The notes beneath the pieces were generated by a model. The model was not told where the DNA came from and did no database searches. It saw only the letters and a program-made list of their open reading frames with translations. A stretch of DNA of 64,000 bases, the filler included, from Jimgerdemannia flammicorona (lineage: Eukaryota), in the NCBI GenBank assembly GCA_003990765.1. It is 3 parts of 3 records of this genome, joined end to end, with 100 filler letters (N's around TTAATTAATTAA, not from the genome) between each part and the next. Parts side by side here need not be neighbours in the genome. Positions count along the whole stretch, not along the records: positions 42,951 to 64,000 come from RBNJ01001543.1; 2 more parts are not named here. The stretch is one strand, 5' to 3'. Both the position numbers and the translations under genes were made by a program. Positions 21,921-60,518 of this stretch are shown here, one piece after another (position 1 is the first letter of the stretch; every line of letters begins with the position of its first letter).

Positions 21921-22816
21921 TATCATGTGAATCATGTGACATGCAAATGATGCCAGGCTAAGTTAACAATAGATATAATAGATATTTTGCTGAGGGACGA
22001 TATGCGAGGACAGGATTAGGCCTATTGCCCTCGCCAGGCCATCGGCAGCTCGAGAATTGTCACTCTCTTTTGAGCACCGAACTTTGTGGCCATTAGCCTT
22101 CTGCGCCATCTGTTCCAATATGTTGCATGGCTCTAGTCTGGTCCTACGTATATATTAGTATTCGTCATCAGCTAGCCAAGTTATAAACATCTGGTCATTT
22201 GGCATGAAATAAGCGACAAGCGACATGGTCGCTAAGACAGAGCCTAGAAGCGTGACAGAGTGACGGCATTCGGGCAACGGCGTTTGAGGGAATGAAAACT
22301 CGACGTCTCAAAGAGCGACGGCGAGGTTCGTCCATCTATCGATGCACGTTGCCAGATCGAAGGTTCAGGCTCTGTTGAGATGTGCGGCCCTCTTTTCGCC
22401 GAGAGGGTCAGACTTAGTAATGGTTCGACGGCAATTGTTTCTGGTCCGGTGGACGGTATGAAACTAAAACCCGGAGTGAAAGCGATGACCGTGGCTGCGT
22501 TGGCGTGAGTTTTCTCTGTTTGTTAACCTTTACTCACCAGTCTTGGCAGCCCTGAAAAGTCAACTTATTAGTTCCTTGAGCAAGGACGAGCCATGGCTTT
22601 GGGGCTAATGTGAACTCTCATTCATGAATTGCGCACACATTTGAATAAACAACCACAAAGCGGATAATGGTCTAATCCATGTTGATATTGCTGTGAATTA
22701 TTCAAACTGGCTATGTACAACTGGCGGACGATGACATGAAATCCCGTCCTCAACACATCGGCACCAATCAGCTATACCTCTCAGTCTTCCGCTGAACTTT
22801 CAACACACCCTTCACC

Positions 22817-25800: not shown

Positions 25801-26852
25801 TTTGGGGGAGGAGAGGTATCAGTCGCAATGTTATTTAAAATTATATGCACGATGGATTGGCAACGGTTACATACCCATGCAGCGCTAAGATCTTCATGGG
25901 TCGTGTCTTGGGCCCGTTGTCACGGGCCTTCTTAAACTTGGGATTATTGGTGGCGCCGTGTTGCGAAGCTTGGTCCGGCCCGCGCTCCTGCACGGAGCGC
26001 ATGAAGGCAAAGCGGTGAGAGGCGAGAAACTCTCGCTCCTCGGAGGTCGATTCGCGACCGAGGAGCTGATTACGGTGCGGATAGCGGCCGAAGGCTTGGG
26101 ATTTAGGATGGGGCTTGTGAGTGAAATGTTTTGATGACAAGGGATGCTTGAGAAGGTTTTGAAAAAGAAGATATACCTTCAATCATGTCCAGATGCTGCT
26201 TGGCCGACCGATGCTGTGTGGAATACCTCCTCTCGGCTGGATATCTTTCCGCTAGCTCGCCAAACAGCTCGACAGATCTCGTGACGAAAGCGCGATCTTC
26301 AGCATGCTCGAGACAGTAGTAGAGAAAAAGCTTCTGTGGAGGCGAGTACATCGTGACGTGTTGTGGGTCGTCGAGGACGGCGAGGGCTATTTCGAGCGCC
26401 AGTGTGTCGAACGCGAACATGCGCGAGGAGCCGCGGTAAATGTTACGCGAGAACTGATCCATGAGGAGGATGAGGCAGAGGCGGCCAGCGGGAGAGGTCA
26501 TCCAGCGAGAGAGGATGTGTGGCTCCAAGAGGGAGTCGCTCTTGAGGGTGGACTCGACCTCGAGGAGCAAAGGCTCGAAGTGCTCCTTAATATGACTGTC
26601 GACCGCGGGGGTGCCAGAGAACCAGACACGGGTCGGGAGCTGGTATTGGGGCGACCAGTGGTTGTCGGCGGGGCCAAACCAGTAGGTGAGGATGGATTGG
26701 ATATGGACGCGGTCAGATTCGGTCAATTGCTTGTCCTCCTCCTGCGGGAGGAGGATGTATTGGCGGGGGGTGGGGGGGAGCAGGTCACCGCGGCCGTCCC
26801 GGGATGGGGGGAGGACGACGGCGATTTTAGTTGTTACAGGCGAAGGGTCCAT
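22817..26852 (-). CDS. Multidomain protein (~1263 aa): DUF924 + FSH1-like serine hydrolase + DUF2828/TROVE-like segment + RNI-like LRRs
   Basis: Exons 26852-26177, 26094-25875, 25795-25501 and 25417-22817 join via GT-AG introns into 3792 nt in frame. Motifs: LMDQFSRNIYRG / LEHAED / FGRYPHRN (DUF924); KILALHGFRQN / GFSQG / HSGGH (FSH1); YGSWKEL...FVAQLTKD (DUF2828-like); DGRLDMCKQ followed by LxLxxNxIG repeats. Confidence 0.85.
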
Positions 26853-27192
26853 TTGTTGGTTGGCAAAAGAAAGCAGGCAGTTGTGGTTGAGAAGAGGGCT
26901 TATTTAATTCATGATGTGATATTTATGCACCCAGAGCCGAATCACGCCAAAAGCCGCTCGCTGGTGAGTCACGAAACCGCAGCAAAAGAATATGGTCACG
27001 TGCTTCCCCTCACGAACACTTCGTAATACTGTATAGTTGTCTGTTTGACAATTATAAAATTCTGTACAAATCACATCACACTGTAGTCGCTCCCTAGCCG
27101 GACCAAAAAATCTCCAGCACCTCCATCTATCCACCTCCAACTTTCCTCACACCAAAAACCTAACATGCACCTACCGCCACATCCCCCCCCAC

Positions 27193-27961
27193 CTAATCAT
27201 CAAACTCAAGCTCTACCTCCTCAACGAGGTATCCTCCCACAGGTCCCTGCTCCTCCTCAGCTCTCGGCTCCTCCACCTCCTCTGCTTCGAGAACGTACTC
27301 CTCCTCGTGAACGACAGCCTCCTCCTGCTGTACGACCATGGTTTCGCGCTTGTCCTTCTCCACTACCATCGCCTCGCCCTTCTCGGCGGCTGGCACTGTC
27401 GACGACTTGGTGAGCCATTTTATGGGGTTTTTGTTGTAGACAGACCAGGAAGGGATGGTGACCTAGACGAAAAAATCATGGGGCGGCCGTTAGAACATGG
27501 TGTGAGAGCATATGATGGCGGAGAAATAGACGTAGGAGGTGTAGAGAACCATGTCGCACACGCGCGTAACACTTACAATCAAGGAGATGACGAGGCCGAC
27601 AAGGTAGAAGATTAGGGTGAGCTTGAGCGACTGCTGGAGGTATCCGACTACGAAGCCGATCGCCTAGAAAACGATCAAAGTTCCCGTGTAGCTCAGTCTT
27701 ACACGTCCTAATTAAATAGCCGTGGAGCACAGGTCTCACAACGACGTTCCATACGTACCGCGAACCCGATCAAAATGGCTTGCGTCAGGTTCTCGGAGAG
27801 CTTCTGGCCCTCAAAATCCTATTATACACGAAGATGAAGGTTTAGCATTGAAGGAAGCCATGACCTTGCCACGAAAACAAAGCTGCACACCTCCCAGAAG
27901 CCGCAAAGACACTTACAATTCTCCACTCGAACCAGTCGGCAATGGATGAGGCGGAGGACAT
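27193..27961 (-). CDS. SPC1: Signal peptidase complex subunit 1 (SPC12 family), 153 aa
   Basis: Exons 27961-27917, 27818-27759, 27663-27577 and 27462-27193 (GT-AG). Motifs DFEGQKLSE, two hydrophobic segments (GFVVGYLQQS) and IPSWSVYNKNPIKWL. Confidence 0.88.
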
Positions 27962-28502
27962 GTCGATGGTGGGATTGTGGAAAGTGAGAGGAACAAGGAT
28001 TCCGAGTGACGTGGCATAGGTAAATTTGAGGACGTGCGGCTTGGACGTGAAGCCGATGACATCATCACTTATGAAATGTATAGGATCCCTCCCAAAAAAA
28101 AAAAAAAAAAGATACTGATTAATGAGCAAAATAACGAATGTAGATTTCAACAGGTTGAATGAATGTCTCCAAAATGACAAGACAGTGGTAGAGTCGCGAT
28201 GTCCTCATCATAATTGGTCAAAAAATATTGTACAATGTACAAAAGCGATAGCGCAAACAGCCGATTTTTACGCCATCTGCATTCTTTTTTTTTTTTTCTT
28301 TTTCTTTTTTTTCTTTTTCTTTTTTTTCTTTGGGGAGTGTGTGAAGGGGGGCAAATTATTGTTTGTGATCCGGCCATTCCATCATCTACTCTCACCCCAC
28401 CTCCCACTCCCATACTAGGAAACGCAAATCCTACATGCCCAACCTCCATCTTTGCCGCACCCCAAATCCAGCAAAGATCTCATCCCAACCGACTCTCCCC
28501 CT

Positions 28503-30116
28503 CTACAAGAATCTCAATTGTGCCTGCGAGAACTTGATAGGCTGCCAGCTAAGCTTCGTCGGCTCGATACGCCTGGTGGTCTTCCTCTTATGTTTCTCAT
28601 GATCCTGCTGTATCTTATCGCTGATGGCGATGACGTGCTGCCCTTTGTAGTATCTGAGTGCGCCGATGAACTGCAGTGTGTGTAGTATGTCCTGAGTTGT
28701 AATGGCGGTCTTCTGCGAAATCTCCTCGACGGTAATCTCCTCCTGAGTGTTGAGTAGCATCTCGACGATGGTGTCGGCCCAGTAGGCGCGGTAGGAGAGT
28801 AGACCGAGGTCGGAGAGGGGCTTCTCAGGCGAGCCGACCTTGCCCTCGACCCGGGAGAGCTCATAGGAGAAGGCAATGAGGAGCTTGCCGAAGCCCATAC
28901 GCTGCCACTGTGGGAGAGTGAGGATGCAGGCGACGTTGTAGTTCTCGGAGGATTCCTTCTCCTTGGAGAAATAGCCGATGAGATGGCAGCCGACCTCGTC
29001 GCGGAGGGTCATGCAGTAGAAGAGGAAGGGATCGACATCGTAGTAGAGAGTTTTGTGGTCGAGGAAGAGCTTGGAGAGAAGGCAGAGGTTACGGCACCAG
29101 GTTTTCTGCTTGCGGCCGTCGATTTCGAAGAAGGAGATGTCCTGGTGGCGGTAGATTTCGTTGCCTGGTGGATGCTGGAGTTGGCATTTGTTGCGGTGGC
29201 GTTGCAACTGCTTCTTGGAGAGATAGTGGCTCAGACAGAACTCGCAGATGTAAATGGTGTCGGCGTGAGCGTACTCGGGCGGGTAGGGCGAGAAGTACCA
29301 GGTCTCAACCTCGTGCTTGCCGATCTGGATGCGGTTTAGGTTTTTGATGCGCGAAATCTCGTTCACGCACTGCGTCATTGAGCCCGATGTGCGCAGCTTT
29401 TCAATCTCCTTGTCCTTGGAGAACCCCGAGACGGGTCCGGGGTCCGCGGACTTCTCCGTCGACTCGTCCCCGTCGAGCATCATGTTGTCCTCCTCCCCGC
29501 TCTCTGCATCCTCCTCAACTTTCACCAGCTCCTTGCCTTCCTGGTCGGGCCCCATCGGGCTTGAGTCGCCCGCCTCCTCCTCCACGAACTTGCGTTTGTT
29601 GGGCGTTGTCGTCGGCGCGGGGCTCGCCGCCGCGTTGGGCGTGGAAGGATTGGCCGGGGATGCGGTCGAGTTCTTAGCCATGGCGGCTTTGGCCTTACGC
29701 CCCTTGGCCGCCTTCATGGGCGACTCCGGAGGCGGCGTGTCCATAGATTCCTTGCCATGGCCGAGCCCACTCTTGGTCTTTTTGGTTTTGGGGTAGACGA
29801 TCTCCATGGTTAAGTCTAGCTGGTCGACCTTCACCCACGAGTCCAAGCGTTTGTTGTACGAGACATAGTGGACGTAGTACTCGAGTTGCGTCGGATCGTC
29901 GGGCGAGACGCGCGTCATCAGAACCTCGGCCTGGAGCGGTTCCGGCAGCCTCTTGACGGTGACGACGCAACCGGGTGTCACGCTCTGGATCGTCTGGGCC
30001 TGAGGAGTCGAAATGGCGGAGGAAGCGAGGGGGGTGCCGGCACCAGAGACGGCGGGGCTGACGCTCCGCGTGCGATCCCGGCGTGCGGGTGAGCCGACGG
30101 ACAGCGTATCAGGCAT
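28503..30116 (-). CDS. ESA1: MYST-family histone acetyltransferase Esa1/Tip60 (~537 aa)
   Basis: Tudor-knot YYVHYVSYNKRLDSWV, KLRTSGSMTQ, WYFSPYP, C2HC finger, HKTLYYDVDPF, NYNVACILTLP, GSPEKPLSDLG. Start placed at MPDTLS (30116); the ORF is open further upstream. Confidence 0.95.
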   Translation of the reverse strand: MPDTLSVGSPARRDRTRSVSPAVSGAGTPLASSAISTPQAQTIQSVTPGCVVTVKRLPEPLQAEVLMTRVSPDDPTQLEYYVHYVSYNKRLDSWVKVDQLDLTMEIVYPKTKKTKSGLGHGKESMDTPPPESPMKAAKGRKAKAAMAKNSTASPANPSTPNAAASPAPTTTPNKRKFVEEEAGDSSPMGPDQEGKELVKVEEDAESGEEDNMMLDGDESTEKSADPGPVSGFSKDKEIEKLRTSGSMTQCVNEISRIKNLNRIQIGKHEVETWYFSPYPPEYAHADTIYICEFCLSHYLSKKQLQRHRNKCQLQHPPGNEIYRHQDISFFEIDGRKQKTWCRNLCLLSKLFLDHKTLYYDVDPFLFYCMTLRDEVGCHLIGYFSKEKESSENYNVACILTLPQWQRMGFGKLLIAFSYELSRVEGKVGSPEKPLSDLGLLSYRAYWADTIVEMLLNTQEEITVEEISQKTAITTQDILHTLQFIGALRYYKGQHVIAISDKIQQDHEKHKRKTTRRIEPTKLSWQPIKFSQAQLRFL

Positions 30117-30644
30117 AGGAAGTATGGGGGTGTAATTGTCCGAGATGTGGATGAGATCTAGGACATCAACAGTCAGCAATTGTGCTAAACGTATTTTTAT
30201 TTCTGAATTCCGTGCTTCAGAGCTGTGACAACAAGCAATTGGCAAGCACGTTCTTCAAGACTGGCCCAACCAACACAATCAACACACCTGCAAGTGCAAC
30301 AATGTGCGTATTATAGGGCGCTTCGTCCACAGGATTCCTTACTCAAGTATAAAAATTTGTTCAGTGGGTTTATTGGTGTATACCGAGATAGAATATGCTG
30401 GGATCTTGGCACGCCGTGGTTCAGTGCTCGGCGTAGCGAAGTGTATGGGTTTTACTGCGGTATGGCGTTCGTTTGTTGACTTTTCCTCCAAGGTGCATAC
30501 GTCACCGCCCGTCTGGTCACCTGATCAACCACAAAAATCACGCAATTTTCCTCTGCTATTACGATGAAGAGGTCAACCCAAACACGAACGTATGGTCTAA
30601 CCTGTATACAACTGACCTGGCTGGCAAGTTGGAGAGTCAGGGGC

Positions 30645-33696: not shown

Positions 33697-36600
33697 GGTA
33701 CTTCTTGAGTTGGTTTTGATAAATGGTGGTAGGGATTATTGTGCCTGAGGGCTTTCATAGCCAGAAAGTAGTCCCTTTTATATCTTGTACCAGATAAGGT
33801 CCTTCCTACTTGGGCTCCAGTTTTCATGACCAAGAAGCTTCTACTATGTTCTGATATACTAGGACTTCATCTCCTATCTTGATAATCTCCAGGGGCTTGT
33901 GGGTTTTTTCTGCATTATTCCATTGTAGTGCCTGCACCTTGATTATATAATTCTCTGCCTTTTTCCTTATTTGATGCAATCTCCATATCTCTGTATCCAC
34001 ATGCTTCCAGATTGCGTCATTAGTTACTGACAAACTTCTACCAGAATCTTCTTCACTGAATAGTATTTCTCATGGTATAAAATGGGTGCTTTGTGATCAT
34101 ATATCCCACAGAGTGGATAATGCTATTGGTAGATAGTGGTCCCAGTTTCCATATTCATTACAGATCTTGGTAATGATATTCTTGAGGGTCTTATTGGTTC
34201 TTTCTGCTTGTCTATTTCCTTATAGGTAATAGGCTGTGGTCTTGATGTATTGGATCTTGTACTTCTTGTAAAGAACCTCATGGAACTGGTTGATGAATTC
34301 TGTTCCTCTGTCTGTAGTAACTTGCTTTGAGGTCTTGAATTGGCAGATGATTTCTCTGTGAAAGAAATTGGCAATTGACTATGCATTGGCTTCCTTGAGG
34401 GGTCCGGCCTCTATCCATTTTGTAAATAGATCCACTATTATAATGACATATCAGTTACCAGTTAATGTCAGGGGTAGAGGGCCAATTACATCCATTGCAA
34501 TGTGGGCAAATGGTATTGGTTTGATGTCTGCTGATCCAGGGGCTTGATCCCATCAGTCTTGTTTCTGTTTCTGGTATTTATCACAGGTCCTGACAAATTG
34601 TCTGATATCTTCTTCCATTCTGGGCCACCAAATAGTTCTTCTCACTTTGTCATATGTATTTGTTCCTCCTACATAACCCTGTTCATGTACTTCTTTCATT
34701 ACTTGATTCTTCCACAGCTCAGAGATGACTAATTGTTGTCCTTTCTTGAGTATTTCTCCATCAGTTTCGAATTGTTTCCATGTCCAATTAATAATTGTTT
34801 TTGTCCATTCTTTCAGATGTGGGGGCATCTTTCGCTGCCCCAGATAGCTGATGATTCTGTAGTACAGCTCCTTATTTATAGTGATTTTGTGGAGGTGAGA
34901 TCCTTCAGGGTGTCCATGAGAGGGTGTCGGCATTGGTGTTGGTTCTTTCAGGGTGGTGGGTGATTGTGGCATTGTATGCCTGCAGCTTCATGATCCATCG
35001 AGCATAGATTCCTTTGGGCTTGCTGGTAGTGAGCAACCAGGTGAGTGCTGAGTGATCTGTCTGGATAGTGAAGTGTCTTCTAGCCAGGTAGTAGTGGAAC
35101 TTCTCTACAGCCCAGATAACTGCAAGGCATTCCAGCTTATAAGACTCATAGGACTGCTCTGCCCTACAAGTACCTTGGCTGAGATAGGCTACTACAAATT
35201 TGGTACCATTTTTCTTTTGTGCAAGGACAGCTCCAAGTCCCATTGCACTGGCATCTGTTTGCAGAATAAACTCCTGAGTCTAGTCCAGTCTTCTCAAGAT
35301 TGGGGTCTGGGTTAATCTGGTCTTGAGCTCATAAAGGCTAGTTGCTGCTGCTGAGTCCACTGGAACTTAACCTCTTTTCTGAATAGATTATAGATAGGGC
35401 TGGTGATGTGGGAGAATCCTCTAATAAATCTTCTATAGTAGGATGTAAGTCCCATGAAGGCTTGGGCTTCCATAATACTGGTAGGTACTAGGTATGCTGC
35501 CACTGCCTTGATCTTTGTGGGGTCTGTGTGTGTTCCTTTACAGTTGATAATATGTCTGAGGTATGCGATCTCTTCTTCTCCAAACTTGCATTTCTTGGGC
35601 TTGATGTAGAGGCTATGTTTGTGAAGCCTTCTGAGGATTTCCTCAATATGTTCCAAGTACTCCTTGGCTGTTCGGCTGAAGATGACCATATCATCTATAT
35701 ATACCATCATCCATTTTTCCATAACATCTCTGAAGATGCTGTTTATCATTTACTGGAAGCTTACTGGTGCATTGTACATTCCAAAGGGCATGCAGAGATA
35801 GACATAGGTTCCATCAGGGGTGATGAAGGCTGATCTTTTGCTGGCTTCTGGTGTAAGGCCAATTTGGTAGAATCCTGAGAACAGATTCAAGGTGGTGTAG
35901 AATCGTGATTCATTCTCCAGCATGATGAGAATATCGCCAATATTTGGCAATGGTTGTCTGTCCTTCTCTGTGACCTTGTTGAGTCTTCTATAGTCTGTGC
36001 AGAGTCTTGATATAAATTCTCCTGGTTGGCTTCCTTTCTTTGGTGTAAGGACAATGGGGGAGAACCAAGGACTGTTGGCTTCTTTAATGATACCGGATTC
36101 CTCCATTTCCTTGATCTCTGTCTTGAGCCATTCTCTGTATGCTGGTGGAATGGGGTGGGCCTTCTGATAGATTGGCTTTGCATTTCCAGTATTGATATCA
36201 TGATAATACAAAGGTTTCTTGGTTTTGATGTCCTTGAAATCTATGGCCAGTATATCCTCGAATGTATGCAAGAGGCTCTGCAATTCTTCTCTAAGGGGAA
36301 AGTTTCTTCCAATTGTATAGGTGTGTTTGTCTTGGCTTTCCTCCTTCTTGTGCTCCAATTCGGTGATCTTAGTTGCTGCAAGGACTCCTCTTCCTATAGA
36401 GCTGAATCCAGCTCTCCCTCACTGAGTTTGTCTGATGTTTGTGACCTCCTTGATTCTTGGATTAAGGACAGGTAGGATGAGCATTTGTGCCAGCCGATCC
36501 TTCTTCCTTACTTCAAATGGGATTGTTGGGTTGTGGTTTCTGGTGAGGAGAAGGATTTCTCCAGTATAATCTGAATCAATGACTCCTCCTTCTATAGATA

Positions 36601-43528: not shown

Positions 43529-46500
43529 TGTAAGTACATAACCTCCAAGCCACCAAAATTACATATCATCCTCAGAACTAATTTGGAAACTATATGTGAG
43601 ACTATAAAACAAGTTACTGAAGAGATCATCTGGTTATACAAAATACACCAGTAAGTACAAAAATCCACTACCAAGATACAAGAATACCAGAAGAAGTACT
43701 ATAATCATAAGACTGACTCTGAATCTCTATAACTAGTTTGGTATACTGTACTATTACAAAAGGAAACTGAAAGTACCAAAATCAAACCAAGACAAGAAGA
43801 ATTCTATCTCATCTATCAAAAGATTCATGAACTATACTTATTAACTCAAGACCAAGATACACTATGACTATATGAGACCTCATTATTTAGTAGAAGTAAA
43901 ACACATTTGAATAACTTCATTTACTCTATCTATGTTACCTTTATTGGAGAATAACAGATGCTTCATCTGAACTCAAGAAAGCTGACATTGTCAAAACCAA
44001 TCTCAAGCCATCTATATGACAGATATTACTACTAGAAATTGCCTCAGATTACAGAAAATATCATTTCCAAGAAGTTTGAACCCCCAGCTGCAATATTGGG
44101 AGCCCTTACCCTAGATAAGAATGGCCAGTCCTTGCAAATGTGCCAGTAGACCAAAAAAAAAGAGAACCAAGATCTATTATCTTTGTACAACCACTGCTAC
44201 CAAAGACTACCTTAATCTTACAAGAGATAGAAGTGATGACATCTTTGAAACTAATGATATCAGAAGTCAGAAAACTGCTCAGACTTTGCCAGTGATGATG
44301 TCATTAATAGTGATGTCATCAAAGACTAACCAGATAGTGTCTAAACCTATAAATAGCTTAGTAGTCATAGCATAGTTAGATTAGCCTTATATAATATGAT
44401 TGTGAACTGACTCAGCAGTCAGATGATCTCTTGACATATATATCAGATCACACTTATACTATATGACTGCATTTTGACTCAGTAAGGCACTAAGTGCTAT
44501 ATCTATATTCAGCATAGCCCAGACCTCAGAATCTCAGACTCAAACATTTCTGAACACTTTTTTATAATATCCCTTCATATAACTACTCCTAGTATAGTAA
44601 TATCATGAATAGTGAATAAACCTATTTAATAACTCACAAATCACTCTTAAGTAAATCTGTTCTCTATTACATCCCACTCTTAATTCCATTACAAAATTTC
44701 CTAATTGGATATTGTCTGCAGTGATATGCCAATTCAACTAAGCTGGTCTTAGTTTCTTGAACTTCCTGAAATATGGAAAATTCTGAACATCCAGAACTAG
44801 TCTGAAAAAGGACTTTGGTTGAGACATCAATCTGAACTTAAAATCAATAAGTATAGAGGATGTACTCCATATGAAATTGATCCTGACCTTAAGAAACAGT
44901 CTTCCAGAATATCCAGAACTTCTAGAAAACCCTTCCAGAACTACATAATGGTTATCCTAACAAATAACTATCTTACAACTTGGTAGCAGTGGTTTATAAT
45001 CCAATTCTGCTTTAAGACACTTCCTCACCCTACTACAAACCCCTTTGAGAATTCCTACAAGTTGGTATAAAGCCCAACCTCTGAACTGGAATTTAACCTA
45101 AACCATCTGATAATCTGGAGAGAATTGAATCTGATGTACAAGGACAATTTGACCTCCACATCTACAATAAGTGGGATAAACTTTATTCAAAGAAAGAAGT
45201 ACTCTGATTAAATCAGCAGATAGGTGAAACTCTATTTACCAAACTCCTTGCTCTATACCCTGTAAGTCAAGATAAAGAAGATCTTATAGAAGCCTTCTTT
45301 ACTCTTCTCAATAAGAGTTTTGTCAGCTTCACAAATCTGAGCAACCTAGGATAACCAACAGCAGTCTTTCTAGCCTTAGTTCCTCATAAAGCCCAAGCCT
45401 CTGTAGCCAAGTGGCTCAATCTACTGACTTTTACCATACTAGGACCAAGATCAAATTATACTACTGATTCTAAAACAGTAAGGTCTACTATATTCTTAAA
45501 GAAGAAGTAAGAGAAACTCTTCACCAACAACCTGATCCTGAACCTGAAGCAGACCCTGCTATAGCTCTACCTGAACCCAAAACCAACACTGAACCAGAAC
45601 TTGACTTTGAATTAAGTCCTTCCGAAATCAGATATACAATTGATTCTATCTACTTTGATACTGAGCAAACCCAATTATACAGAAATCAAACTGAAGAGGA
45701 GGAGGAGTATCTCAGTGAATTTGATCCTAGATATACCACAGAAGGAGACATACCTCCATTAAGACAGAATACACCTATATAGCAACAGACAGCTATCTAT
45801 TGAGCCCTTACTCCAGACCCATAACTACTACTCCAGCAACGTATACAGATCCAAAGAACACTCTCACACTCTACACCAGTACTACAAGTAGTACCAGTAA
45901 CATCACTACCAGCAGTCCAACCACCTCCAGCAAACAATATGGCAAACCAACAGATTCTAGACCTCATAGCCCAGGTAGCAATAATAGTAGCAACCATTAC
46001 TATCTTAGCTAAACAGACCTGATCTACCAAAAATCTGAGCCTACCCACCTTCAATGGTACTGCACAAGAAGTCCAAAGCTTTATTAGTATAGTTGATACC
46101 AACTTTAAAGCCAATCAATAGACCAATGAGTGAGTTGCTAACTGCCTTCTGATAAACAATCAAGACCATACTCTGGAACAACTCTTTGCTACTACTACAG
46201 CCTATGTCTGCCAAGTTGTTATATTCTTCCAAGGACCCACTGAAGAATGGTAGTGAATCCTTCCTGAAAAACCCCTCACATGGGATATCCAACCTGCAGT
46301 AATTGCCCCAAATGTAGCAAACAATACCCCAGAATATGGCACCCATCCTGTAGCCCCTGGACTGAAACAACTTATGATTGCTCAATACTACAGTAAAACC
46401 ATGATTGCTGAATCTCAAGTAAAACTCTGCAACCTCAAATTTGATATACATGGTAAGGAAGAATTTGAAACCTTCTGTACAAAACTCAAGTTACTCCTGA

Positions 46501-49500
46501 ACACCATTGGCCTAGGATATATTACCAATGATGAAGCATGAAATGGTACAAGAGTAGACCATCTATTCGATATACTACCTGAATAGCTTATAAGAAAAAT
46601 CCAAGAACAAGAATGTCTAGTTGATTGTGACCATCAATAATAGTGCCTGGCAAGAATCAAGACTATAGTCAAGTAAATCTTAACAATTGGACCAATTCTG
46701 CCCTAAAGACAATTCAACAACAAGGAAAAGACTTGGACCAAGAAAGAAGAATCCAAGCATGAAGCATCCCAAGCTCCCTCAACATCTACCTCATAGATAC
46801 CTAGAAATCATGAACCCACCCAGCTGAGTACCTTTAAGAAACTCACTAAAGGAGAAAGAAATGAACTTCGAAGAAGCAGAGCATGCTTCTATTGCCAAAA
46901 GACAGGACATATGACCAGTACCTACCCCAACTGAAAGCCCCAAACAGCAATATGAGCAACTGTTACTACTCTGTACCACCTCAATAACCTGACTACCAGA
47001 ACACTGGACTTTGTCAAGTTAAGACAAACTGCTAAGGCCCCAACCAAAGGAAGTCAAAAGACAGCTAAATATGACCTATATGCAGCCGAAGAAGCCACAG
47101 TTTCCAACCAAGAAGTCAAGCAAGTCTATACAGGAATCAGCATCCAAATCTCTAAAGGACATGTTGGAAGAATATACTGTCACAGTAGCCTAGCATTGAA
47201 AGGACTCTCAGTAGAAGGAGGAGTCATTGATGAAGATTATATAGGCAAAATTATTGTCCTCATCCAAAACCATAGTTGGACACCCTTCAAGATCTTCATT
47301 GGTTTCTGCATTGCCCAGATTCTATTTGAGAAAATTGAGTCAACTCTGATAGTCAAGGAAGTCTCTGAACTACTACTCACCATCTGAGGATCCAAAGGAT
47401 TTGGCTCATCAAACAAAGCCCTAGCCCAACCTACTATGAGTAAAGAAGAACAATTCTATAAGAAAATCAAAGATGGATATATACCAAGTGGCCAATGTCT
47501 CCATAGTATTGGAATGTACTCTTCTTGAATGATCGATGATTGCTTCTCTTATATCAATGAATTGGCTCAAAGAAGAACCAACAGAAGGAAAGCTCTTATA
47601 ACTGAAATCACTACCATTGGATCAGACAAACTGCTTATACTTCAAGCTTTTGTCAACTAAGCACTTGTTAAGATTATGATAGACAGTGGTGCCTCAGGTA
47701 ACTTCATTAATGAAGAAACAGCCAACAGACTCAAGGTCTTCATCTCTCCAGTATAACAAACTCAAGCAGTTGCCACAGCTGATAGAACCTCCTATGTCAT
47801 TAGCAAGGAAGTCTGCAATCTACTCTTCCAAATTGGTGACTACTGAGTACATGTTATCCTCCAGATCATACCACTTCCTGACAATGAAATCATCCTTAGA
47901 ACCCTATGATTAAAACAAGAAAACCCTATAATCAATTGGGTAAACCATTCTTTGATCATTAAGAAAGAATGCCACAACTTCAAACTGCAAGGTAAAAAGG
48001 ACCCACTCAGCTCTAGTAACCCTGGACCAAAGATCATCTACATCAATAAGCTATAGCTCAAAAAATTGGCCAAGAAATGTCCTCTCTTTGCCATCTCCAT
48101 CTGCCCATCCAAAGAAGAACCCAAGAACTCTGAAGAAGACTTTTCCAAAGTTGACAGCCACATTAGACCCCTACTCCAGAAATTCTGAGACATATTTCCA
48201 AAGAAACTTCTGAAAGATCTATCTCTCAAATAAGCAGTGGACCATACCATCAAGACTATTCCAGATGCTAAGCCAGTCTTCAAGTTAATCTACCACATGT
48301 CTCTAAGAGAAATTGATGCACTCAAGAAAGAAATTGATAAACTTCTAGAATAAGGATTCATCAGATCCAGTGTATTACCCTATAGTATACCAGTACTCTT
48401 TGTTGTAAAGAAAGGAGAAGACTTGCAAATGTATATTGATTACCATGACCTCAATGAACAGACCATCAAGAACTATTACCCACTACCCAGAATTAATGAA
48501 ATATTCAATAGACTTATCAACTCACAATTCATGAGTTCTTTTGACCTGCAAAATGGTTACTAGCAAATTGCTATGAAAGAAAAAGATATCTACAAGATAG
48601 CCTTCCAAACTTGCTATAGACACTTTGAGTTCTTGGTTATACCCTTTGGCTTAACTAATACTCTAGCAACCTTCCAGACTCTGATGAATACTATCCTGCA
48701 CCCATACCTGGACAAATTTGTTATTGTCTACATCAATAATATCTTAGTCTTCAGCAAAACCCTAGAGGAATATCTCGAATACCTTAAACTAGTACTACTG
48801 AAACTCTGAGAAAACTGACTCTTTGCAAAACTTAGCAAATGTGAATTTCTCCTGAAAGAAATTCAATTCCTTGGACATATTTTTATGCTTAATGGAATCA
48901 AAGTAGACCCTAGCAAAATCTCCACAATCAAGAATTGGCCCAGACTCAAGAAGCTGAAAGACCTCCAGTTATTCCTGAAATTAGCAAACTATTACAGATG
49001 ATTTGTTGCCAACTTCACCAAAATCACCACTGCTCTCATCTAAATAACCAAGCACAGTAAGAAAGAAGAATAGCCCTGGACCATGAAATAAGAAAAAGAC
49101 TTCAACAATCTTACAAATTGGAGACCTGAGCAAGATACTGCCTTTCAAGCACTGAAGGATACCTTGATAACTACTCTAGCATTTTAAGCAGTAAACCCTG
49201 TCCTACTATATGAGATTACTACTGATACCTCTGACCTAGCCCTTGGAGCAGTACTTATACAAGAAGGATACCCTGTGGCTATCACTCTCAGAAGTTCAAT
49301 GATGCTGAGATCAACTATACAACTTATGAGAAGAAAATGTTAGCCATTATAGACACTCTGATCAAATGGTGACCATACCTAGAAGGAGTACACTTTATCA
49401 TATTGACTGATCACAAGTCATTAGTCAACATCAAGACCTAGGCTACTCTTTCCTGAAAGCAAGCCAGATAGATGAAAGTCCTCACCAACTTTGACTATGA

Positions 49501-52500
49501 AATCCAGTATTACTCTGGTAAGGAAAATATTATTGCTGATATAATCTCCAGACCACCAATCAAAGAAGTTATCCAAATTCTCACCTTGGTTACAAATTCT
49601 ATCATGGAATAAATTATCACAACATATGCTGATAATAAAGAAGCTCAAGCACTCCAAGAAATTCTAAGTAGTGACAATACTGACAAGCATACTCAGTATC
49701 AGCAATACCAACTGAAGGATAATATAATCTACTACAAGGACAGATTGTATGTTTCAAATTACTGTGACCTCCAAAGGACTATTCTATTTGAATGTCATGA
49801 TGCCCCTATAGCTGGATATTTAGAATTTGACAAATACTATGAAGTTATCTCCTGAAACTTCTATTAGCCCTGTATGATAGATCAGCTAAAGACCTACATT
49901 ACTTCCTATGATGCCTGCTAATGGAACAAGTCCTCAATACTAGCAAAACCTGGTCTACTTCATCCCATCTCAGTACTATCTGCTAATTAGAAACAAATCT
50001 CCATGGACTTCATTATACAACTACCCCAGACCAAGAACAGGAAAGATACAATTATTGTCTTTGTAGACTATCTTAGTAAACAAGCCCACTTTGTACCAAC
50101 TACTACTACTATAACAGTACCATACATAGCCATACTCTTGTTTGACAACATCTTCTGCTATTATAGTCTTTCTAAGATCATTGTTAGTGACTGAGACCCA
50201 AAATTCACCAGCTATTTTTGGAAAGCCCTCCATATATACCTTGGAACCAAACTTGTACTATTCATAGTATTTCACCCTGAAACTAATGACCAAACTGAAA
50301 GAATGAACCAAACTCTGAAACAAATACTAAGGAACTATATTTCCTACAGACAAGATGATTAGTATGAACACCTCACCACAGTTGAGTTTACTTACAACAA
50401 TAGCAAGCAAGTCTCTCTTGGAATGACCCCATTCTTTGTCAATACTAGACAAAACCCAAACACTCCTCTGACACTTATCCAAACTACTGATGAACCCTCT
50501 ACAGTCAAAGCTGTTGAAGAATTCCTACTCTGAATGTACAATCTAGGCCAAATTGCAATTGAGAACTTATCATGAGCTCAAGAACAACAGTCACAGTATA
50601 TCAATCAATATCACTAAGAAGAGACTTTTGATATTGGAGAAAAAGTTCTACTGGATATCCAAGGATACTGAGTTGACAATCTCAAGTACAGACCATCTAT
50701 AAAACTGAAAAGTAAGTTTATTGGACCATTTGAAGTTATTGTATGAGTCTCTCCTACTTCCTACAAATTGGTACTACCAGATATCATTAGGATTCACTCA
50801 GTCTTTAATATCCAACATCTCAAGCAATACAATGAAAACAATGATGAACTATTCCCAAACTGAACCATAGAACCATCTGCACCTATCATTATTAATGACC
50901 AAGAAGAATATGAAGTTGAATAAATTCTCAAAAAATGTAGCAACAAGAACCACCCCAAGTATCTTGTCAAATAGAAAGGTTATCCAATCTATGATGAAAC
51001 ATGGGAACCCAAGATCAATCTCCAGAATGCCATCAACTTAGTTCAGAAATATGATTTCTTAAACAACTAAAACTGAATACCCAGTAACTATCAGTACATA
51101 CTATATATTATCCTCCTGAATATTATAATTATTACAAACAAAATCAAGAACTCAGTAAGTTAAGACAAAAGAATAACTGACCCTCTGGAAAAATAGCAAA
51201 ACTGAAAGTAAGCCTATTCTCCCTATACTACTGGTGGGAAATAAGGCATAGATATTTAAGAAGATTTCTTAGAAGAAATTCTCCAGCAGTGAATGATGTC
51301 AGAATCACTTCCAGTGCATGGCATTGAACACATGACCCTTTAATATATGAATCCAATATGTTAGGCAACTATATTATAAGTATATTACTTTCTGAAAATA
51401 TAGACTTCACAGGACTTTTAACCTCCCAAATGGTGTAATGATACTAGAACAAATTAGAAGGTCTCGATGAGGATGTCAAAAGCTAAGAAGGAGAGAGTTA
51501 TAAGCATATAATCTCTAAGCCACCAAAATTACATATCATCCTCAGAACTAATTTAGAAACCATATGCAAGACTACAAAACAAGTTACTGAAGAGATTATC
51601 TGGTTACACAAAATATGCCAGCAAGTACAAAAACCCACCACCAAGATACAAGAATATCAGAAGAAGTACTATAACTATAAGACTGACTCTGAATCTCTAT
51701 TACTAGTTTGGTGTACTGTACTATTATAAAAGAAAACCGAAAGTACTAAAATTAAACCAAGACAAGAAGAATTCTATCTCATTTATTAAAAGGTTCATGA
51801 ACTATACTTATCAACTCAAGACCAAGATACACTATGACTATATAAGACCTCATTACTTAGCAGAAGTAAAATACATTTGAACAACTCTGTTTGCTCTATC
51901 TGTATTACCTCTATTAGAGAATAATAGATGCTTTATACTCAAAAAAGCCAACATTGTTGAAACTAATCTCAAGCCATCTACGTGACAGATATTACTACTA
52001 GAAATTACCTTGGATTATAGAAAATATCATTTCTGAGAGGTTTGAACCCCCAGCTGTAACATTGAGAGCCCTTGCCCTAGATAAGAATGGCCAGTCCTTG
52101 CAAATGTACCAGCAGATCAAAAAAAAAGAGAACCAAGACCTGTTATTCTTGTACAACCACTACTAAAGACTGCCTTAATCTTGCAAGAGATAGAAGTGAT
52201 AATATCTTTGAAACTGATGATATCAGAAGTCAGAAAACTACTCAGACTTTACCAATGATGATGTCATCAATAGTGATATCATCAAAGACTAATCAGACAG
52301 TATCTAAACCTATAAATAGCTTAGCAGTCATAGCATAGTTAGATTAACCTTATACAATATAACTATGAACTGACTCAGCAGTCAGACAATCTCTTGATAT
52401 ATCAGATCACACTTATACTATATGACTACATTCTGACTCAGTAAGATACTAAGTACTATATCTATATTCAGCATAGCTCAGATAGCCCCTCACTAGTATA

Positions 52501-52973
52501 TATAAATACCCCCTCCCCCAGACCTCAGAATCTCAGACTTAAATACACAAGAACATTTCTGAACACTTTCTCATAATACTCCTTTATATAACTATTCCTA
52601 GTATAGCAATATCATAAATAGCAAATAAACCTATTTAATAACTCACAAATCATCTTAAGTAAATCCACTCTCTTTTAGATCTCACTCCTAACCCCATCAT
52701 GAAATTTCTTAATTGGGTATTGTCTGCAGCAATATGCCAATTTAACTAAGCTGGTCTTAGTTTCTTGAACTTTCTGAAATATGAAAAATCCTGAACATCC
52801 AGAACTAGTTCAAAAAAGGACTTTGGTTGAGACATCAATCTGAACTTAAAATCAATAAGCATAGAGGACATACTCCATATGAAATTGATCTTAATATTAA
52901 GAAAACAGTCTTCCAGAATATCCAGAACTTCTAGAAAATCCTTCCAGAACTACATAACAGTTACCCTAACAAA
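43529..52973 (+). mobile_element. Ty3/Gypsy chromovirus family A, copy D (alternative U3; 3' LTR lacks its last ~13 bp)
   Basis: LTRs 43529-44977 and 51499-52973, PBS at 44981, PPT at 51481-51498. Internal region is colinear with copies B and C. Confidence 0.92.
44726..51070 (+). pseudogene. gag-dUTPase-pol-chromodomain of copy D
   Basis: Same motifs as copies B and C (GGVIDEDYIGKI, IPFGLTN, MDFIIQLP, EEYEVE...WEPKINLQN). Confidence 0.88.
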
Positions 52974-53135
52974 TAATGCTCCAAACAAGTCAGTATAATT
53001 TGAATCTGATTTGAATCCAGTCACATGGAATTCAAATCAGATTCGAATCAATTCAAATCAATTCAAATCAAATTCAAATTGGATCCTAATTTGGAAAAAA
53101 TAATAATTAACCAAAACAATCAACATAAATTGCCT

Positions 53136-53427
53136 AATATATCCACGAATATTCATCCAAATTCAATAAAACAAAGTGTACTGTATTCGCCTGATTAAGG
53201 GCTTTCCAGCAGTATAGATTTCATTTAATCTGGACCAGTATTTGTGGAGAAATTCAACAAAACCTTTTACAGAATGTGGCTCAACTATGACCTATGGACA
53301 TTTTGTTAATTTCCTCCATGAATACTGGTCCAATTTCAATGAAACCTATATTGCTAGAAAGCCCCTAATCAGGCGAATACCGCACACTTTGTTTCATTGA
53401 ATTTGGATGAATATTCATAGAGATATT
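53136..53427. mobile_element. Foldback/MITE, ~290 bp imperfect inverted repeat
   Basis: Arms ~53136-53264 and ~53300-53427 are reverse complements (e.g. GAATATTCATCCAAATTCAAT / ATTGAATTTGGATGAATATTC). Confidence 0.8.
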
Positions 53428-53874
53428 ATTCTTTTTGTCTAAGATTTATATGATATGAATTCAGTAGATTGGAATTTGGGGGTTTGCTAGAGCGGCAACA
53501 GTCACAGACCCAAGTGGCTGGCACAAGTGGCCAGATACACATGACTCAAGTTGCACCAGCTCGTAAGGCATATGAACTTAGAACTGTTCAATAGCCACAG
53601 CCTGCAGCCACAGTGCCAAGGTGGCACAGAAATATTTTTCTCTCTTTCTCAATCATTTCTTTTGTTTACTCAGACTTTGCCTCATACTATACTCTTTATA
53701 ATAAGGACTCTCAGCTGTTTGCTACAGTGCCAAGATAGTACAGAAATCTTCAACCTCTTTTCTCAATTATTTTTTTTATTTTCTTACTTACTTAGACTGT
53801 GCTCCACATTGTATATAAGGACTCTTAGTTGTTTATAATAAACTGCAAACTTGAAATCTTTTTCACTTCATTCA

Positions 53875-55959
53875 ATGGCTCAATATAACTACCTCTACCT
53901 TTTTAACATTTCAAACTCCTTCGAAATTTTATAAGAAGAATTTGACAAACTTTGGCCACTTGTTACCAATGTTTGGAGTCATTATTCAGATAGTTTTCTA
54001 GCAAAAAGAGATGAATGGACAGTATATATATTTTCTCTCAAAGTGGCATCAGTCTAGTATATATCAAGAGGGTGTTGAACCTGAGAAGCATAGAAAAATG
54101 AATATTTGTGACCCTAATCTCTGCTCTGCCAAAATTCAAATTACTAGAATCTCTTCTACATAAACTGTGCATATTGAACTATTTGGCCCAGGATCTACTA
54201 TTCATACTTATCCAATTGATGAGATTGATATACTCAAGAAGTCTCAGACATTGCTTGATCTTGTAACTGAGGAGACTGTGAAGAGTTATCAGCCACCAGA
54301 TATTGCTATATTAGTAAAAGAAAGTGCTATAGCAAAACTGGGTGAAGGAAGTGGAGTATAATATCTTCGAACAAAGGATATTGCAAACATTCAATAAGTT
54401 GTGTGGGAACTAGTCAATACATATCTCATTGAAAGTGAAGATTTGAAGATAGACATTACAGAGACTCTTAAATTTTTACTAGAAAATAGATATCACATTT
54501 AAGAAATATCTTCATCCTCTACTTTATCTTCTACCTCATCTTTTATCTCATCTTCTACCTCATCTTCTACCTCATCTTCTACCTCATCTTCTATCTCATC
54601 TTCTACATTCATTCTGCCTAAACAAGAATTTGTTTTTGCTATCTCAGAGTAATCTCAAAAACTTTCAAAATATGGCTGGCTGATACTTATTGACTCAACA
54701 TACAAGACAAACAAGTGGGACTGGCAGTTGTTTATCTTATACATTCATGATGATATTGGATACTAATATATAGATAGACACTTCTTTGTAGATAGAGAAG
54801 ATAATACTATCATAACTTAGATACTTAAGATAGTTCGAAGGTTTTTACCCAACTAAAGTCCTTGATATATTCTTTCTGATCAGAGTACCATTGAAGCTAA
54901 TATGTACTATCAATAAGGTCTTTCAAGGTCTAGAAGCTGGTGAGATGAAATGTACTATTATTTTGTATACAGTTCATATTATGTGAACATAGATATTAAA
55001 GATATATGGTGATGCTGCCTGCAATAAGATGATTCTGACTATGCATTGATGAACTAAAGCTAACTGTAAGGAGAATATACAGCAAGCAATTGAGCTTGCT
55101 CCCACTTCAGCCATCAAAAATTACATTATGAAGAACTATGCTAATAATATAGAGAAGTAGGCACTATGGGCTCACCAATACTCACTACTTCTGCTTCAAG
55201 TAACAACTACCAATACTGTAGAATCATTTCACAGTGAGCTCAAGACTACTATATCATCCTCTCATAGTTTAATTGGTATGTTTACTTTTTTTTATTATTA
55301 ATTAATTTTATAATTTTAATATTAATAATTATTTAATTGATTTTTATAATTTAATAATAATATTTTAAACTACAGGTGTATGTATGAAGACTATCAAGCT
55401 TGATACCAAGAAGAGCCAGAATGCTCAATGAGCAGAATTGCAATTTCATACTCATAAACTCTCTATTGCTGCTGTTGATAATGCTGTTCTTACTGAAATC
55501 TACAAGTTCCCCTATTCTCTCCAGTGACTTCTTGCTGATGAGGCCCTTTTTGTACTGAACTGAATTGAGAAAGAGAAAGCCCCACTAGGATTGATTAATG
55601 CTGAGTATTATTGTCGATTTTTCATGCATTACTTGATATTATATCAATATGTTTTTCATAAGCATTTTCACAGAACAACAAAGCTACTCATAGAGTATAT
55701 CTGGTAAGATTTTCAAGATATGTTTGCTAAGGCTGGATATTCAGTATATGAGCATCATGAAATAGTTGAAGTTCATGAGTTTGAGACCAAGGAGCAGAGA
55801 GAGGCTGAGAATTTGTGGTTGGAAATGAATGAGATAATAGAGAGATTTCATAATTCATTTTGGTGGATTTTAGATAATGGTGACAATGCAAAGACAGTTG
55901 AATTTCTTCAACATGTGCAAGCATCAATTGAGCCAATTCTTGAGGCCTATCGCCTTTGA
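53875..55959 (+). pseudogene. MULE transposase with SWIM-like finger
   Basis: IDSTYKTNKW, ILSDQS, TVHIM, TTTNTVESFHSELK, an intron at ~55276-55375 and a decayed CxC...CxH. Multiple stops and frameshifts. Confidence 0.88.
54511..54607. repeat. 12-bp tandem repeat TCTTCTACCTCA (Ser/Thr-rich insert) in the MULE ORF
   Basis: About 8 imperfect units, read directly. Confidence 0.85.
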
Positions 55960-55966
55960 GTTTTTG

Positions 55967-56005
<39 letters not shown>

Positions 56006-56238
56006 TTTTCATTTATCGCATGTTACCGATTTCTCCAAATTGAGTTACTGTGGAAGTTTATACGGCCACTTGGGCCGGCCACTTGGGTCTGTGACTGTTG
56101 CCGCTCTAGCGAACCCCCCGAATTTGGCAATTCGAATTGATCATGTGATGAATTCGAACCGATTCGAATTGATCATGTGATGAATTCGAACAGATTCGAA
56201 TTCGAACTGATTCGAATTGACTCGTTCGGAGCACTATT

Positions 56239-56597
56239 CATATCTACAAGAAGATATAATATCTCTGTAAAAGCTACTATATTATACTACTGCTAGAGTT
56301 CTGAATCCGGAAGATAATTGCTTGAAAATGATATGTATGATGTGCACATGGATACACTATTGCTTCTGCAAGCATATCAACAAGGCACATGAGCATTCCT
56401 GATACTGGGTTGTCCTGTGTATGGGTAGATCCAAGACATTCCACTGCCCAAACCCGCATTACACGTCATCAGAGCTTGACAGAGACATCAACGCTGCCTA
56501 CAACGTCTTCCTGCACTACCTCACTGTGAACTACACGCAAGAAGAGCCAGTTACCCCAGCATTGGGGCCTACCCCTTCAAGGCTCTCGGATAACTAG
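56239..56597 (+). pseudogene. Fanzor/TnpB (IS607/Fanzor2-like) C-terminal fragment
   Basis: Reads YLCKSYYIILLLEF, then after a frameshift KMICMMCTWIHYCFCKHINKAHEHS*YWVVLCM GRSKTFHCPNPHYTSSELDRDINAAYNVFLHYL...ALGPTPSRLSDN*. These match the WxHYRF, SKxFxC..C and DRDxNAAxN motifs. Confidence 0.8.
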
Positions 56598-56655
56598 GGT
56601 CTTGTGCAGGACTTGTGCATTCCACAATTTAGACTTATAGAAATATGAGTTTTTA

Positions 56656-59661
<3,006 letters not shown>

Positions 59662-59791: not shown

Positions 59792-60518
59792 TAGTACTCT
59801 CAAATAAATCAAGTTATAATAATTTATTAAAAATACATTAAAATTTAATGTTTTTTATTATTAAATTTATCTTAATTAGTATTTCTAATTAAATTAAATT
59901 AAATTAAATTGAGTTTAATTTAATAAAAATAAAAATAAATTTAAAATTTATTAAATTTGAATATATATTTTTAAATTTTGAAAAATTAGATTTATATTAA
60001 ATTTTAACTTTTAATTTATATAATTTATATAATAATTTTACTATTATAACTTATTTTTATATCTTTTCTCTAATCTTTCTTTATTATTTTTTAAATATTT
60101 TACAATATTCTAAATACTTAGAAATTATCTCTTAATACTAAGACTTTACTAGAATATTTTATCTTTTTTCAATATTAAGTATCTCTTTAAGCTACTTTAG
60201 ACTAATACTAAATTAATTTAATTTGAAATATTTAAATTAAATTGAGAACTAATTTAATTTAAATTTCAATTTGAATCTTAATTTTAAAAATTCAATAATA
60301 TGATAAAAATATATCTAAATTTAATATAATTTAACTTATTAAATTCAACTTATTTAAAAAAATCCAATATAATAAAAATTATCAAATTTAGATATATTTT
60401 GATTGAGTTATTATATTTCAAAGTTTGACTCTTAATTTTGAATCAAATTAGACCTTAATTTAATTTAATTAAAATTAACTCTAATTTAATTTATTTTAAT
60501 TTTTTTTTAAAAGTACTA
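59792..60518. mobile_element. Very decayed member of the TAGTGCTC/TTCGAA TIR family
   Basis: Ends TAGTACTC... and ...AGTACTA, with TTTAAATT/TTCAAA repeats consistent with decayed TTCGAA. A similar end lies at ~39479-39660. Confidence 0.45.

Follow-up and report, generated by a model that had tools for sequence, protein, structure and literature searches.

In TnpB and Fanzor elements the guide RNA (omegaRNA) is encoded at the right end of the element and takes its guide from the flank beyond (Saito 2023, PMC10432273). The same study reports that Fanzor2 genes are broadly present in fungi, and it describes Ty3/Gypsy insertions in or beside Fanzor genes. Decayed loci also figure there: in Spizellomyces punctatus, partial Fanzor1 genes and protein-less 'ghost' omegaRNA loci, with 30-nt inverted repeats, keep the right-end/omegaRNA region, and the ghost omegaRNAs were shown to be functional. 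The mimivirus Fanzor2 protein ApmFz2 has the catalytic triad D324, E467 and D501, in which E467 has moved 50 residues from its canonical place (ApmFz2 paper), and according to Jiang 2023 the canonical RuvC-II position of Fanzors is occupied by Pro or Gly, with a substitute Glu ~45 residues further on. In Mucorales, Fanzor1 genes have been found within the terminal inverted repeats (TIRs) of MuDR-type elements (Bao and Jurka 2013, PMC3627910). Here we analyse a stretch of DNA from the Mucoromycota fungus Jimgerdemannia flammicorona (the window: the whole stretch of 64,000 nt, along which positions are counted). Between a Mutator-like element (MULE) and the end of a CHK1-like kinase gene, it holds what appears to be a dead copy of a Fanzor2-like element whose right end has survived better than its coding part.

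Comparison with relatives confirms, at the level of sequence, that positions 56239-56597 are what is left, with a broken reading frame, of the C-terminal ~130 residues of a TnpB-like protein of ~600 amino acids (aa). The remnant consists of two pieces:

56239..56319, + strand: frame 1 fragment, the N-side piece of the Fanzor remnant (family profile positions 465-490, E = 0.68; collinear with, and adjoining, the significant match)
56337..56597, + strand: main coding fragment, in frame 3, which begins at the W.HY.F helix, takes in the C-terminal tail and stops at a TAG (56595-56597)

The frame 1 fragment translates as HIYKKI-stop-YLCKSYYIILLLEF-stop-IRKII, and includes LCKSYYIILLLEF followed by a stop at about 56263-56304 (+ strand). 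Its counterpart in relatives is 'H.kklakwLvenyevvLLPkFetsqmv', which holds the canonical RuvC-II position, with Pro there. Frame 3 can be read from 56271 to 56597 (+ strand, 109 codons) and continues as MMCTWIHYCFCKHINKAHEHS-stop-YWVVLCMGRSKTFHCPNPHYTSSELDRDINAAYNVFLHYLTVNYTQEEPVTPALGPTPSRLSDN-stop, the single internal stop being a TGA at 56400-56402. It contains the RuvC-III motif LDRDINAAYN (56475-56504, + strand). The last 64 residues match the Pfam domain PF07282 (Cas12f1-like TNB) with E = 0.002 and 18.7 bits, over profile positions 37-60 of 60.

With a 64-aa piece as the query, an exhaustive phmmer search of 1.84 billion representatives found seven proteins at E <= 0.001. Five of them (P0004-P0008; E = 1.8e-4 to 6.4e-4) are true relatives, all short, with 49-65% identity to the query, and two of the five are named Diversispora epigaea; the other two (P0002 and P0003) are unrelated repeat proteins. 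A separate homologue search for longer proteins with the 64-aa piece gave six candidates, none of which scored, and the relatives came from the exhaustive search. P0007 served as the bridge to longer proteins, with 422 matches at E <= 0.001. We made a profile hidden Markov model (HMM) of the family from 30 full-length relatives (alignment A1, 596 positions) and compared it with all six frames of the window. There is a real match at one place, 56337-56543 (i-E = 1.5e-7, profile positions 504-588 of 596), with the collinear frame 1 piece just upstream; the remaining rows are low-complexity sequence with E-values of 3.7-6.

The full-length relatives are ~560-630 aa long and contain the domains PF12323 (helix-turn-helix), PF01385 and PF07282. 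Few of them are named (Racocetra persica and Diversispora epigaea), and the family's named members are from Mucoromycota and Glomeromycotina. The Fanzor literature, supplementary tables apart and in the portions drawn on here, does not name Mucoromycota or Rhizophagus, nor, in the part of it covered for that name, Glomeromycota. When the A1 profile was compared with all PDB sequences, the best match was 9b0l (E = 9.5e-46, profile positions 185-577), which is the mimivirus 'TnpB-like protein L79', that is, ApmFz2. Next in the ranking come a nuclease designed by artificial intelligence (6.7e-17) and then chains of TnpB/Cas12f type (OrfB_Zn_ribbon/IS605 OrfB) at E-values of ~1e-15 and poorer. The 20 PDB chains listed at E <= 0.001 include no Fanzor1 chain. 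The family to which the remnant belongs can be classed as Fanzor2-like, a placement made with the family profile and not with the fragment by itself.

The family and ApmFz2 share a relocated RuvC-II Glu within 'E.yT.KTC', ~50 residues past a canonical position that is not acidic. In A1 the invariant Pro of 'LLPkF' occupies the canonical position; the Glu, also invariant, is in 'dEayTSKTC', where it aligns with E467 of the mimivirus protein (counted on the profile/9b0l alignment). They differ in length: the family proteins carry a long low-complexity N-terminal extension, whereas 9b0l has 520 aa.

The window copy has lost much of this protein. An 18-residue in-frame gap (profile alignment) between codons 56418-20 and 56421-23 takes away 'dEayTSKTCgeCGklhekL', and with it the relocated catalytic RuvC-II Glu and the first CxxC. 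The second CxxC of the zinc ribbon reads CPNPHY, with one Cys remaining, and the C4 zinc ribbon is incomplete. A shorter gap and a frameshift lie between 'LLLEF-stop', 'IRKII...' and the frame 3 piece. In all, the coding tail carries two in-frame deletions, an internal stop and one frameshift or more. The N-terminal ~465 of ~600 residues are absent, RuvC-I among them: nothing in the window matches profile positions below 465, the 1.9 kb adjoining the MULE on its left included, and neither the window nor the left flank has the RuvC-I Asp (DPG.R motif). The window copy keeps one of the three catalytic residues, the RuvC-III Asp (LDRDINAA, 56475-56498), in a motif that aligns with the 9b0l DRD ending in D501. 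Because the RuvC-I part, the catalytic Glu and the first CxxC are missing, and because of the stop and the frameshift, this Fanzor copy is dead and cannot be a nuclease.

These results agree with most of what an earlier reading of the same DNA by a model (the original prediction) had claimed for the coding part. It had seen three motif groups in a stated order, which are present in that order on the + strand, and had taken them for a TnpB/Fanzor remnant, which the PF07282, phmmer and family HMM matches establish. It had listed 'E.YTSKTC..C' as deleted, and the 18-column in-frame gap is exactly there, the lost Glu being the one aligned with ApmFz2 E467; its label for that motif, 'RuvC-II Glu', is right for a Fanzor2-like clade. 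That the N-terminus is cut at a TIR is borne out as well, since the outer TIR of the MULE ends at 56238 and the remnant starts at 56239. Its verdict that the copy is dead stands, given the loss of the catalytic Glu, the first CxxC and RuvC-I.

The best-surviving part of the copy is its last ~110 nt, which contain a motif (motif A), a hairpin and a terminal GTAGGCG. The features of this 3' module, and of the flank next to it, are:

56564..56575, + strand: motif A, GGGGCCTACCCC, conserved as nucleotides 74-89 nt past the DRD codons
56598..56674, + strand: conserved non-coding 3' region, the putative omegaRNA template and right-end region
56617..56665, + strand: imperfect hairpin of 19 pairs with the loop AGAAAU (RNAalifold on the window, L002 and L043)
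56668..56674, + strand: terminal heptamer GTAGGCG, the putative right end, where similarity among copies ends
56675..56695, + strand: flank that a read-through omegaRNA would use as its guide, judging only by its place past the putative right end

As relatives for comparison at the DNA level, 470 of 599 candidate stretches from metagenome contigs were confirmed, and the best 80 loci (279,099 nt; numbered with L) were kept. The exact pattern of motif A occurs in three of the 80 (L002, L014 and L046; both strands searched), every time on the + strand and 74-89 nt past the DRD codons, and variants of it are present in L003 and L062; in the window it occurs once. It is translated as G-T/S-Y-P in L002 and L046, as W-G-L-P in L014, and as L-G-P-T-P in the window. 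The 'ALGPTP' tail is, on this comparison, not a peptide motif, and the conservation is at the DNA level. Among 116 protein tails that carry RuvC-III (P0004, P0006-P0129), 24 have LGxTP, 13 have GxYP, four have WxLxP, ten end in G[VA]GS and 65 have none of these. The stop codon shifts around a fixed nucleotide motif, GGGNCCTACCCC (P0009-P0129; L002, L014, L046 and L062): some proteins stop before it, ten stop inside it (..GVGS-stop), and others read through it in one of three frames. Because the stop shifts and three frames are used, the C-terminal 'motifs' annotated in proteins of this family are a by-product of a nucleic-acid element.

Conservation continues past the ORF (open reading frame). 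Local alignment of window positions 56598-56690 with the post-ORF DNA of L002 and of L043 beats 500 of 500 dinucleotide shuffles in each case (z = 5.3 and 6.3), and both alignments stop at TGTAGGCG (56667-56674). By blastn, the remnant gave weak coding matches only with the 80 metagenome loci, plus a 44-nt post-ORF match at E = 1.3, and in an all-against-all blastn of the 3' tails similarity was mostly confined to the DRD.NGARNI codons. The heptamer GTAGGCG follows motif A at a distance of 104-118 nt in L002, L014 and the window; L043 has it too, and L003 has the variant TGTAGCGC. Beyond it the sequence is unrelated in every copy. GTAGGCG is probably the right end of the element. A further contig, L018, ends 15 nt past a GTAGGCG.

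Because the 3' module occupies the place where TnpB and Fanzor elements encode their omegaRNA, we infer from position and analogy that it would be the omegaRNA template of this family. In Fanzor2 systems the guide-RNA template is at the ORF 3' end and downstream of it, and the same arrangement is proposed for the family here; the distance from the DRD codons to the putative right end, ~195 nt, is comparable with the 205-nt scaffold of ApmFz2 (ApmFz2 paper).

The hairpin was examined by covariation. In the three sequences from which it was derived, five pairs are changed on both sides, and 92.9% of cells are paired, compared to 38-55% with slid partners (12 of 500 shuffles attain such values). 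A covariance model of the hairpin, run over 343 kb, recovered its three training sequences and four weak matches. Three of these four (L008, L030 and L012; E = 0.57-3.1) are on the + strand directly past the Fanzor ORF of their locus, and L024 is not. When L008 and L030 were added, 92.5% of cells were paired in the five sequences (0 of 500 shuffles) versus 40-55% with slid partners, and nine pairs were changed on both sides (3 of 500 shuffles) versus 1-3 for slid partners. We regard these counts as supportive, not decisive. A second pairing was considered. Motif A is complementary to the terminal heptamer in the window, L014 and L002, with a compensating variant in L003, and we keep this possible pairing as a lead only.

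For this 3' part the original prediction fared less uniformly. It had proposed an omegaRNA at ~56540-56640, a stretch that does overlap the nucleic-acid element conserved in relatives, but the element runs on to 56674, has no Rfam match and has an ordinary fold energy. Its end for the whole feature, 56655, falls short for the same reason: the conserved element reaches 56674, overlapping the kinase stop and last codons. It had staked the omegaRNA claim on conservation downstream of the ORF among copies, which is present (L002 and L043; 0 of 500 shuffles each). Of the checks it had suggested, a profile search gave the family HMM match at 56337-56543, and alignment of 3' ends gave the common end GTAGGCG at 56668-56674; covariance folding gave the covarying hairpin at 56617-56665, but over a wider region of four sequences only a 3-pair stem.

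To the left, the remnant is bounded by another transposon:

52972..56238, strand not assigned: probable MULE with long TIRs (core and outer TIR pairs; weak MULE and ZSWIM matches)

Its core TIR is a 63-nt inverted repeat (53478-53540 / 56056-56118, 90%). The outer TIR consists of arrays of AATTCGAAT-type units (52972-53075 / 56238-56120), whose alignment has 101 columns, 86 of them identical; of the 15 mismatches, 11 are transitions. ORF fragments between the arms have matches to MULE (E = 0.0031) and to a ZSWIM RNaseH-like domain (E = 7.1e-5) at 54653-54766, both below the curated cut-offs. The outer TIR ends at 56238, and the Fanzor remnant, starting at 56239, is outside the TIR pair. A 9-bp target-site duplication (TSD) for the MULE is not readable in its flanks, and a search for the Fanzor 5' half to the left of the MULE gave only low-complexity matches (E = 0.04-2).

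The CpG content changes near this boundary. In 500-nt bins, the observed/expected ratio of CpG is 0.96 and 0.79 over the remnant (56001-57000) and ~0.8-1.2 through the kinase gene to 59500, but over most of the transposon field on the left it is ~0-0.15, with one bin at 0.46. The switch takes place within the right arm of the MULE, and the CG of the repeat units there is TG/CA in the left arm. It is as if a methylated, deaminating domain ended just before the kinase gene. The TIR arms differ mainly by CpG-type transitions, with AATTCGAAT units in the right arm and AATTTGAAT or AATTCAAAT in the left arm. Other repeats are nested in this element: a palindrome in the left TIR, with arms of 128 nt (53135-53262 / 53301-53428, 86% complementary, 38-nt spacer), which looks like a nested foldback or MITE (miniature inverted-repeat transposable element) insertion; a 12-nt tandem repeat with seven copies (54500-54618) within the MULE coding remnant; and a (TTA)n microsatellite (55961-56009) just inside the right TIR.

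To the right is the kinase gene, tail-to-tail with the remnant:

56656..56754, - strand: last exon of the CHK1-like kinase (ORF; splice acceptor read by eye)

Upstream exons of this gene match the Pkinase domain. A 92-aa exon matches human Chk1 chains at 2.2e-10, with one plant CIPK24 chain marginally better, a 190-aa ORF matches AMPK chains only, and weakly, and the C-terminal exon has no match in PDB or Pfam. We take the C-terminal motif GD..EW..F to be a mark of Chk1. The kinase stop codon (56656-56658, TTA on the + strand) is inside the 3' arm of the hairpin, and the overlap with the right end of the element (56656-56674) takes in the stop, the last five codons (AYTHS) and a single base of the Ser codon before them. 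If GTAGGCG is the right end, the insertion of the element would lie inside the last codons of the kinase, and its last five residues and stop, with the proximal 3' untranslated region (UTR), would be element-derived. A read-through guide from 56675-56695 would be antisense to the ...MVFVGER codons of the kinase. This overlap may be a modest case, open to testing, of a housekeeping gene into whose 3' end the end of a transposon has been built.

Several of the metagenome relatives bear on what kind of element was inserted. Six loci (L018, L002, L007, L023, L029 and L033) are contigs of 2.0-2.7 kb in which the Fanzor ORF has short leaders and trailers and there is no room for a second gene. This suggests that many contigs of ~2.0-2.4 kb are repeat-collapsed assemblies of solo elements without a transposase gene, although no search aimed at TnpA was made. 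L002, L007 and L014 have no terminal inverted repeat that we found convincing. One candidate, a 26-nt inverted match between the L002 5' leader and its 3' hairpin (I1), was rejected, being no better than other AT-rich chance pairs.

We think it probable that a solo Fanzor2-type element was inserted at the end of the CHK1-like gene and then decayed, with its putative 3' guide-RNA template the best-preserved part. Of this account, the homology, the lesions, the boundaries, and the conservation of the 3' element and hairpin are demonstrated; the steps are as follows. A solo element made up of an IS607-lineage TnpB-like nuclease gene and a 3' guide-RNA template would have been inserted in a Mucoromycota fungus with its right end in the last codons of the kinase. 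It would then have lost its 5' three quarters; the remainder starts where the outer TIR of a Mutator-like element, inserted later, ends. The coding tail would have been broken by a stop, one frameshift or more, and two in-frame deletions; the catalytic Glu and half of the zinc ribbon went with one of these deletions. In working relatives, transcription of the 3' region would yield an omegaRNA scaffold, and the flank would provide the guide.

A number of results weigh against this account. The PF07282 score of 18.7 bits is below the curated gathering cut-off of 26.3, as is expected because the fragment lacks the first CxxC, and the frame 1 fragment is not significant by itself (family HMM E = 0.68). 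Post-ORF alignment was not significant for seven of nine loci (L014, 23 of 500 shuffles; L007, 31 of 500; L003, 92 of 500; L046, L062, L009 and L018 worse). The hairpin is drawn from three training sequences and two weak matches in a model-fitted alignment, in which the counts lean towards structure. The candidate region folds with unremarkable energy (z = -0.41, -1.25 and -1.23; -0.14 for the other strand), RNAalifold on four sequences over ~140 nt found a 3-pair stem only, and Rfam has no match in 56540-56680 (E <= 10 over 56000-57000, where chance matches of microRNA and small nucleolar RNA type are in the MULE TIR repeats only). When the five sequences were folded without constraints, two of them showed the pseudoknot-like pairing of motif A with the heptamer; L043, L008, L030 and L012 lack it or have it out of register. 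Neither a TSD of the MULE nor a Fanzor 5' half to its left was found, and the order of events may have been MULE insertion then loss, or truncation first.

The 3' module could have another meaning. Its conservation and the hairpin covariation fit RNA and single-stranded DNA alike, and motif A, the hairpin and the heptamer might together form a transposon end that acts as DNA, such as a recombinase or transposase site or an end hairpin, and not, or not only, an omegaRNA scaffold. The unremarkable fold energy of the region speaks for a DNA end, and terminal structures are known to be important for the mobility of IS200/IS605-type elements (Bao and Jurka 2013, PMC3627910). Nevertheless, wherever a TnpB or Fanzor has been characterised, its right-end region doubles as the omegaRNA template (Saito 2023, PMC10432273; ApmFz2 paper), and the conserved element starts inside the ORF 3' end, as omegaRNAs do; the two roles are in any case not exclusive. 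We consider the DNA-end explanation possible but clearly the weaker of the two. That the surviving right end has been co-opted is a less likely proposal again. The presence of the kinase stop and last five codons inside the conserved element would agree with it, and the CpG ratios given above fit a remnant within the unmethylated domain of the gene, yet purifying selection against deletions hitting the gene would likewise be expected to preserve the gene-proximal part. We are a little more doubtful still that the right-end hairpin was retained because it supplies the final five residues of the kinase, its stop, its 3' UTR or its termination signals, or, in a related version, that the protein-less end is still a source of 'ghost' omegaRNA. 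If the latter is true, the ghost guide would match an uninterrupted CHK1 3' end, and it could serve in trans any intact family members present elsewhere in the genome.

The position of the remnant against a MULE TIR recalls the elements ROr-4, PBl-3 as well as MCi-4 of Rhizopus, Phycomyces and Mucor, which also combine a Mucoromycota host with a Fanzor next to Mutator-type TIRs, and in which Fanzor1 is cargo within MuDR-type TIRs (Bao and Jurka 2013, PMC3627910). The remnant would then be Fanzor1 cargo of the adjoining MULE. Here, however, it is outside the TIR pair, the MULE being an independent bounding insertion; its family is nearest to Fanzor2 and has the PF12323 helix-turn-helix domain; and the related metagenome copies have their own common end, GTAGGCG, without a MULE TIR. 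Cargo status is very improbable on these data. A chance origin of the motifs in a frame-scrambled AT-rich spacer, without TnpB ancestry, might be argued from the sub-threshold Pfam match and from the two spurious repeat proteins among the seven phmmer matches. Against this, the family HMM match (i-E = 1.5e-7) is unique in six frames of 64 kb, identity to short relatives reaches 63-65%, all the pieces are collinear, and nucleotide conservation past the ORF is independent evidence. The HMM match and the post-ORF conservation together effectively refute a chance origin.

Read as a decayed solo Fanzor2-type element, the locus is a molecular fossil, one more decayed Fanzor in a superfamily already abundant in early-diverging fungi. 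It shares with the Spizellomyces punctatus loci the retention of the right-end/omegaRNA region in decayed or protein-less copies, and that precedent makes a decayed copy retaining its right end an already known kind (Saito 2023, PMC10432273). It differs from them in being Fanzor2-like, in having no inverted repeat that we could find, and in being known from sequence alone. The wider outcome is that a large, little-described Fanzor2-like family is exposed, whose 3' module can be recognised by motif A, by the hairpin and by GTAGGCG with its variants, and this module is a concrete starting point for defining the omegaRNA and the right end of the family.

Elsewhere in the window, near the kinase gene region and just upstream of it, 500 nt at 60001-60500 have a GC content of 12%, with AT-only inverted repeats nearby (59832-59962). 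There are opposite GC and AT skews over blocks of ~10 kb at 44000-54000 and 2000-12000 (GC skew of about -0.2 with AT skew of +0.15, and the reverse), as would be expected if retroelement remnants with A-rich coding strands lie in both orientations. An RVT_1 match is at 35750-36418 (- strand). ORFs at 48.8-51.0 kb (+ strand) look like integrase and chromodomain genes when read by eye; Pfam found nothing in these short Ty3/Gypsy-looking ORFs, and the label 'Gypsy-like' is by eye. A gene island with a GC content of 53-58% (22000-30300) is set within transposon sequence of 28-42% GC. It includes an 895-aa ORF (22817-25504, - strand) with an FSH1 serine-hydrolase domain and leucine-rich repeats, and a MYST/Esa1-type histone acetyltransferase gene (28503-30254, - strand), whose product places the host in Mucoromycota, with 59-60% identity to those of Bifiguratus adelaidae and Calcarisporiella thermophila, 52-60% to those of Mucorales and Mortierellaceae, and 73% to that of one further assembly.

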